From: Haliotis cracherodii
Taxonomy: Eukaryota
Direction: 5' to 3'
Assembly: GCF_022045235.1 (NCBI RefSeq)
Contig: NW_027266298.1
Location: forward strand, 1,550,001-1,614,000
DNA: 64,000 nucleotides
Shown: piece after piece, positions 33,694-33,914 of the stretch
How the letters are laid out: every line of letters begins with the position of its first letter
How positions within the stretch are numbered: position 1 is the stretch's first letter
Program-made: the position numbers and the translations under genes
The notes under the pieces: model-generated
Told to the model about the DNA's origin: nothing
Database searches by the model: none
What the model saw: only the letters and a program-made list of their open reading frames with translations

Positions 33694-33892
33694 TCCGGAA
33701 AAGTAGGGGGAGACCCGAAGGTCACACAGCCACTTAAAAAGTGACTGATGCCCACCAGTAGACCTGCAGATGTGAAAGAGAATTAAACAACAACAACAAC
33801 AACAACAAGCAAAGAGATACACAACCACCCTACAAGGGACTCTAGTTTCTCGCTTCAAAAAATGTAATATCAGATACCACACTTTGATAGAC

Positions 33893-33914
33893 AGCCAAAA
33901 GGCCGAGAAGCGAT
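33893..33914 (-). ncRNA. RNU2: U2 snRNA gene 3, 5' fragment (nt 1-22)
   Basis: ATCGCTTCTCGGCCTTTTGGCT. Confidence 0.95.

Follow-up and report, generated by a model that had tools for sequence, protein, structure and literature searches.

Elements described as targeting snRNA genes were listed in 2015 as Keno, Utopia, Dada-U1 and Dada-U6 only (PMC4640811). Keno belongs to the Tx1 clade, encodes an APE-type endonuclease and is specific to the U2 snRNA gene (PMC4640811, PMC4494074, PMC6136364), where U2 nt 37 is the insertion site of both Keno and Utopia (PMC6136364, PMC4640811). For R2, the cDNA is described as annealing to the upstream target, and junction changes entering the RNA template as being propagated (PMC3774820).

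The window analysed here, i.e. the whole stretch of 64,000 nucleotides, lies in a minus-strand tandem array of U2 snRNA genes, all of them interrupted here; it holds eight U2 3' parts and seven heads (Table 1). At all eight window junctions a poly(A) tail is joined to U2 nt 37, so that the insertion point lies between U2 nt 36 and 37, as for Keno and Utopia, and polyadenylation-like hexamers precede these tails. Genome-wide, all 31 sites recovered with the poly(A)-U2 junction pattern fell within the U2 regions of C5 and C35, the two U2 arrays of the genome with such inserts. Full-length inserts encode ORF1 and an ORF2 with APE, RT and zinc finger (Pfam matches PF03372, PF00078 and PF13966), the best solved-structure relative of ORF2 being human L1 ORF2p (E 1.7e-77; R2 only 1e-19). 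The coding capacity of the ~1.9 kb inserts is ORF1 only, a protein without a Pfam match. Nested in ORF1 of family A are an I-type element (RT plus RNase H) and a BEL/Pao LTR element (4586-10813, 11106-15670), and a block of ~27.7 kb comprising A plus B/H1 recurs on C35.

Genome-wide counts refer to the fetched U2 arrays C35 and C5, with 113 uninterrupted genes and 39 interrupted heads. Of these heads 38 are element junctions; the remaining one, on C3, is not an element and was left out. Clustering at 90% gave 24 groups, of which group 12 (a look-alike within ORF1 of A) was removed and 20 are U2-headed. Sixteen exact U2 heads (a number obtained by subtraction) and most of 449 U1 heads lie outside the counts, and the element catalogue is a lower bound because it was built on two ORF1 queries plus patterns.

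Table 1. Features of the window (positions in nucleotides; the seven U2 heads begin, on the minus strand, at 58117 for E, 51021 for H2, 47901 for D, 40788 and 33914 for C, 27038 for B and 18024 for A)
Feature	Position	Strand	Remarks
U2 snRNA nt 1-22, identical to intact gene	33893..33914	-	start of predicted U2-promoter transcript
Family C degenerate U2 leader, element-borne	33875..33892	-	nt 23-26 replaced; A36G in branch-recognition hexamer
Strand complementary to branch-recognition region (33875-33882)	33862..33869	-	predicted hairpin, pairing probability 0.99
Strand complementary to U2 nt 2-8 (5'-end antisense lock)	33850..33856	-	p 0.017 versus shuffles
3' splice acceptor: branch-point-like TTAAT, pyrimidine tract, CAG	33764..33786	-	leader without donor
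GTCTAC and predicted three-way-junction RNA module	33704..33763	-	immediately 5' of ORF1
ORF1	32527..33693	-	common to full-length and ORF1-only families
ORF2 frame: AP endonuclease, reverse transcriptase, zinc finger (L1/Tx1 type)	28562..32092	-	
Poly(A) tail, then U2 nt 37 onward and U2 gene 3' part	28012..28180	-	3' junction 28168/28169
190-nt spacer exon	34484..34673	-	acceptor 34674/34673; donor 34484/34483
Donor GTGAGT, 569 nt before U2 +1	34478..34483	-	likely partner of element acceptor
Upstream interrupted U2 gene, 3' part	34888..35044	-	
Second family-C 5' end	40638..40788	-	U2 wild-type to nt 35; lock and acceptor unchanged
Family D head, leader, acceptor	47760..47901	-	followed by second acceptor-plus-module repeat
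Family H2 (ORF1-only, ~1.9 kb) head, acceptor	50863..51021	-	antisense to U2 nt 15-28; GTAGTG copy-specific
Family E head, lock, acceptor	57961..58117	-	
Family B head (U2 to nt 24 only)	26898..27038	-	5'-end antisense, acceptor, repeated modules
Family H1 leader and acceptor	20922..20990	-	behind B's poly(A) at cut-site register; tandem insertion
Family A head and acceptor	17882..18024	-	without significant lock

These inserts resemble Keno in combining APE, RT and zinc finger with two ORFs, in their poly(A)-U2 junction ~37 nt from the U2 5' end, and in occurring as several families and tandem copies per array. Their ORF2 pairs an AP-type endonuclease with an RT of the L1/Tx1 type, and they enter U2 ~37 nt from its start with a uniform 3' junction. 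U2-only specificity is true of the families in the window; since this genome also has close relatives of theirs in U1 and U4 genes, the wider clade is not confined to U2. No named Keno protein was among the 120 matches listed. Utopia was ruled out by the APE domain and the two ORFs; it shares with the present elements the U2 site, the common 3' junction with varied 5' junctions, several families per array and tandem insertion, but is of the RLE type, with a restriction-like endonuclease and one ORF (PMC4640811). Unlike Keno in the descriptions at hand, the present group includes sister lineages in U1 and U4 genes, ORF1-only derivatives, an antisense stretch directed at the element's own snRNA head (the lock, below), a splice acceptor without a donor and a three-way RNA junction. 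No antisense lock, splice acceptor or U1/U4 targeting was found for Keno-like LINEs in the literature searched, outside subscription journals and Repbase. ORF1-only, non-autonomous forms are familiar from the half-L1 (HAL1) elements. The element-borne leader is apparently explained by a known mechanism, and its surroundings hold an apparently undescribed architecture.

The U1 arrays, found by a 5' UTR pattern, lie at C32:1.96-2.03 Mb, C6:9.29-9.40 Mb and C51:0.23-0.24 Mb in units of 565-580 bp. They host full-length and ORF1-only relatives whose poly(A) is joined to U1 at ~nt 30-36, a 3' junction that, unlike the one in U2, shifts by a few letters. ORF1 searches led to a tandem unit of U4 plus U6 (1487 bp; C34:17.60-17.68 Mb), with a related element in the U4 genes, including one tandem re-insertion, and no inserts in the U6 genes of the C34 stretches fetched. 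Both the U1 and the U4 elements carry their own degenerate snRNA head. By RT phylogeny the U1 elements group in a clade separate from, and next to, the U2 elements, the I-type elements being a distant group. In the metagenome relatives the head is U2, U1 or U5, or else 5S or tRNA sequence lies alongside (U1, U2 and U5 confirmed by Rfam in some of 20 scanned loci; 5S and tRNA recognized by eye). Loci L115, L146, L179 and L152 show, again by eye, a U5 head with a U5 3' junction, or 5S, tRNA or U1 flanks, and in L130 an ATG stands directly at U2 nt 26. One genome with U1, U2 and U4 specificities offers a natural series for mapping APE target recognition, in which the lock changes with the target.

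Leaders follow U2 to about nt 22 and are family-specific thereafter. All seven junction sequences quoted in the sequence-only reading of this DNA occur on the minus strand of the window. The element does bear the degenerate U2 leader and carries it along, as that reading held; H1, which it placed after U2 nt ~22, is actually joined behind B's poly(A) at 20990, in a tandem junction. Its proposal that U2 homology completes the 5' junction also agrees with the wider set, since the end of perfect U2 varies within families (nt 20, 22, 22 and 35 in C; nt 22, 22, 22 and 48 in family 17; nt 25 and 33 in family 4), as the R2 heteroduplex model predicts. The second C copy (40788) is wild-type further into U2 than the one quoted earlier, and the quoted C leader is therefore one junction form only. 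Identity to U2, calculated from the most diverged copy per family on a gapped and generous alignment, was 0.99 at nt 1-20, 0.83 at nt 21-27, 0.90 at nt 28-33, 0.76 at nt 34-39 (GTAGTA), 0.66 at nt 40-43 and 0.52 at nt 44-48, a gradient from nt 21 with no separate dip at nt 34-39.

By analogy, the degeneracy of the leader fits R2-like drift, provided that transcription starts at U2 +1. A variable crossover would leave anything downstream of it to be inherited and to drift, as in R2, without GUAGUA being singled out. The parallel with R2 elements, which are co-transcribed with 28S rDNA, extends to annealing of 5' host sequence to the target, inheritance of junction changes and pairing of an element strand with upstream host sequence (PMC3774820). 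In R2 the paired strands form P1 of an HDV-like ribozyme, a double pseudoknot with a catalytic J4/2, whereas no Rfam ribozyme family matched the window at E up to 1, and an R2-type 5' ribozyme was accordingly rejected; single-sequence folds of the 5' end gave nested junctions, pseudoknots (HDV core) having been checked by eye only and not seen. Further differences from R2 are the Pol II snRNA promoter, the APE enzyme and the predicted spliceosomal processing. Gene conversion within the array could also restore wild-type U2 in leaders. At U2 nt 23-26 (33889-33892 and equivalents) five families show five different fillings of 4-5 letters, with U2 nt 22 and 27-32 retained around them; from the sequences, this replacement may represent a junction scar or selection against lower stem I.

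The sequence-only reading had gone further, maintaining that GUAGUA is altered in every family and inferring that these mutations block re-cutting of the junction and/or stop the chimeric RNA, which would bind branch points, from acting as a dominant-negative U2. The hexamer is altered or absent in all seven window heads and altered in 24 of 38 genome-wide, with A36G fixed in family C (4/4 copies) and the changes of A and B fixed as well (3/3 each), whose copies sit in a duplicated block. However, GTAGTA is intact in 14/38 heads and in at least one copy of 7/20 U2-headed families, so that its alteration 'in every family' is an effect of the window, and it is likewise intact in three of eight U2-headed relatives in metagenome host DNA. 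Copy-specific changes, which the same reading had named as evidence against itself, do occur: in H2 the change is private to the window copy, two C5 copies (at least 99.6% identical) having kept GTAGTA. GUAGUA-specific selection was rejected in view of the intact copies and the absence of a dip of its own in the identity gradient. Nor do the tandem junctions support protection from re-cleavage. Twelve hits, less one false hit on the other strand and with three counted as one duplicated event, leave nine distinct junctions, all at the cut-site register and several with changed letters downstream of the cut. Judged from these sequences, occupied U2 sites appear to have been hit again at the cut position; target immunity is not evident. 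We therefore regard a protective role of GUAGUA mutations as highly improbable.

That the chimeric RNA is kept from acting as an snRNA may nevertheless be true by another route, namely antisense pairing in place of GUAGUA mutation. In many families the complement of the element's own snRNA head stands directly after the leader. Three solutions are seen for U2, in which the complement matches nt 2-8, nt 15-28 or the branch-recognition region. In the last of these, C has U-A at position 35, family 15 has U.G and E has C-G, and the 'altered GUAGUA' of E is therefore a compensatory change. Compared with dinucleotide shuffles (p ≤ 0.05, in windows picked post hoc and across families that are related rather than independent), a U2 lock was detected at nt 1-10 in 9/20 families, at nt 15-27 in 5/20 and over the whole head in 9/20; the lock was missing or weak in 11/20, and no significant one was seen in families 11, 17, 18 and 21. 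Two of five metagenome U2 heads also carry a lock at this threshold (intact-U2 control, z -0.2). For U1, pairing with nt 1-11, the part that reads the 5' splice site, was significant (p ≤ 0.05) in 8/10 families and in three of five metagenome heads; most abalone anti-U1 stretches are without the GT of a real donor, and two of the metagenome ones resemble real donors. Element letters of the U4 family pair with U4 nt 2-8. The best pairing partner was the element's own head in 8/10 U1, 10/18 U2 and 1/1 U4 families, one U1 family pairing better with U2 than with U1. Three short U1-headed families, each with an anti-U1 stretch, are nested among short U2-headed ones (support 100/99) in a midpoint-rooted tree, from which the direction of the switch is read, and one of them keeps its U2-family context with the anti-U2 word replaced by an anti-U1 word. 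On these pairing models, the lock is predicted to fold the snRNA head shut and to be matched to the targeted U2, U1 or U4.

Leader changes and fold-backs might alternatively be neutral, inherited by-products of 5'-junction formation (snap-back, non-templated letters), only the U2 homology having any importance. Such an origin would agree with the divergence gradient along U2, the recurrent scar at nt 23-26 with its various fillings, the four families named above without a significant lock and the R2 precedent, but it does not account for a lock that tracks the target across U2, U1 and U4, that changed at the U2/U1 switch and that is maintained by wobble and compensatory changes, and it leaves the acceptor, described next, unexplained. 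We consider it unlikely.

Acceptors were scored in 33 families (23 U2, 10 U1; a decayed U1 copy without the motif was omitted) as a YAG with at least 10 of 15 pyrimidines and at least 15 nt without AG. Thirty of the 33 have such a site. Among the remaining AGs of these elements the criteria pick out 75 of 1560, and 26% of composition shuffles pass them. In 21/33 families (4.1 expected) TRAY is found 19-24 nt 5' of the exon, and one U2 head (C35:1464492) has a mutated acceptor. A cis donor within the leader was rejected as none is conserved in the leaders scanned: in 18 U2 leaders no donor for an intron of at least 60 nt exceeded 1.8 of 8.8 bits on a rough weight matrix, and 9/10 U1 leaders have no GT far enough upstream. 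In 9/10 U1 families the leader is U-rich, donor-less and just 63-74 nt long, as might be expected of an outron, onto whose acceptor a spliced-leader RNA would be trans-spliced in replacement of the snRNA head. U2 elements, however, have a cis donor available, and spliced-leader trans-splicing is described as not proven in molluscs (PMC3795323), with other lineages named for it (PMC12460157), which makes an outron improbable.

The acceptor AG is followed by GTCTAC and then by a predicted three-way junction, directly before ORF1. Its third hairpin parses in 24/33 families (closing pair C-G in 15, U-A in 6 and U.G in 3), its second stem is paired in 72 of 80 cells across 16 families, and its first stem occurs as GAG/CUC, GGG/CCC or GUAAGG/CCUUAC. 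Covariation of the junction across families is thus predicted from a manual parse, which leans towards the assumed structure. RNAalifold, run on a MAFFT alignment, returned no three-way junction because the alignment is out of register beyond the second loop; it gave instead a 5-bp helix pairing the acceptor AG, with zero compensatory changes. The acceptor-plus-module unit is repeated whole in several families, e.g. D and B (47690-47760, 26675-26898), where the module stands in tandem before ORF1, each repeat with a pyrimidine tract and an AG. The module was found in 0/22 metagenome loci, and so is not general to Keno-like elements but lineage-limited so far.

The best donor of the U2 unit lies 569 nt upstream of +1, with an acceptor 190 nt further upstream, and the two delimit a spacer exon. 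Contigs from public runs of three organisms related to the host (X1, X2 and X3; three studies), which are only guessed to be RNA, contain exon joints at 34670-(CAG)-34484 in X1 and 34662-(12 letters)-34484 in X3, and X2 has a loose end matching the exon joint in 24 of 30 letters. Depth over the exon bin was 43, 276, 99 and 366, and 0-56 in the two adjacent bins. The donor is conserved as GTGAGT in 71 C35 units and as GTAAGT in 71/72 C5 units, the spacers of the two arrays being 87% identical. Joints, depth and the kept donor together indicate that copies of the spacer exon are spliced to one another, in a linear chain or a back-spliced circle, two forms that the contigs do not separate; the U2 array would thus yield a spliced (or circular) spacer RNA. 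The exon (34484-34673) is CpG-rich and includes what we take to be CRE-like words; it may double as a promoter element. It also contains three ATGs of its own, a point against the splicing scheme that follows.

Splicing of this exon to the element acceptor (34484 to 33763) would excise 720 nt comprising promoter and U2 head. There is one weak hint of it. Contig 14 of X2 spans 33247-33768 and continues in 19 loose letters, and since four of the exon's last five letters agree with the five that precede the element exon, a spliced contig would be expected to stop at exactly 33768. On crossing the acceptor, depth falls from 7.64 to 0.26 in X2 and from 3.1 to 0 in X3, less so in X1 (3.69 to 1.98), and does not fall in X5 (5.8 to 23, from a spacer contig). 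The joint itself was not among the contig joints listed for the runs. Genomic copies in which exon and element are joined were looked for with the C35-type exon end and in another 22 regions anchored on ORF1, several of which are truncated or anchored inside it. None was found, an absence that fits an unspliced template and a spliced message.

On balance we think it somewhat more likely than not that the inserts combine a drifting U2 front, an antisense lock and a donor-less acceptor, the last likely spliced to the U2-spacer exon. The U2 promoter would give rise to an unspliced RNA starting at U2 nt 1, which would serve as the insertion template and whose cDNA would anneal to the upstream target at a variable point; the lock may prevent base pairing between the head and U6, splice sites or branch points. 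Read-through transcripts of the array would be spliced from the spacer donor to the element acceptor, removing the folded head and leaving a message for ORF1 and ORF2. Donors in the U1 and U4 units are weak (best 2.2 and 3.6 bits; the U1 unit has no acceptor-like site), and there splicing might start from weaker donor-like sites of the promoter, in particular those 46-52 nt upstream of +1, a position at which U2 has such a site too. Since no exon precedes the first C5 unit, the RNA would start at a U2 promoter, within the spacer or beyond the array.

Proteins of the L1 type mostly copy the very RNA that encodes them (cis preference). This sits badly with a separate message and template and calls for caution, although the ORF1-only families indicate that trans mobilization works here. 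Only tentatively, then, do we extend the scheme to a LINE clade living on Pol II snRNA arrays (U1, U2, U4) and using two RNAs per insertion, a locked template and a gene-trapped message.

Recognition of 3' splice sites can be coupled to polyadenylation. The acceptor could accordingly be bound by U2AF and U2 snRNP and remain unspliced, acting as a terminal-exon signal for elongation and polyadenylation of the snRNA-promoter transcript. This would suit the finding that U1 and U4 elements, in arrays with no strong donor, have the same acceptor, as well as the hexamers before the tails and the failure to find spliced copies in the genome. Against it, every U2 unit has an active donor 720 nt upstream, the X2 contig end fits a splice to that donor, and relatives from metagenomes rely on these promoters with no acceptor of this kind; we find a purely terminal-exon role rather unlikely, though not negligible, and continue to favour splicing to the spacer exon.

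The nearest parallel for borrowing an upstream host transcript is the SVA subfamily driven by the MAST2 promoter (PMC4494074), which incorporated a host exon; in the present elements no copy with the spacer exon was found, and borrowing would be repeated in every array unit. The locus bears on the route by which promoterless site-specific LINEs get transcribed and translated from within snRNA genes, and on the host's tolerance of chimeric heads, and it offers a named candidate splice junction for these questions. If the splicing scheme is true, the element uses the spliceosome to remove the snRNA piece that it broke. LINEs with multicopy targets are also of interest for site-specific gene insertion, where 5' end design matters. 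Away from both U2 arrays, C9:2316187-2323300 carries three U2 genes that differ in their 3' half and spacer and have neither inserts nor the spacer-exon donor.
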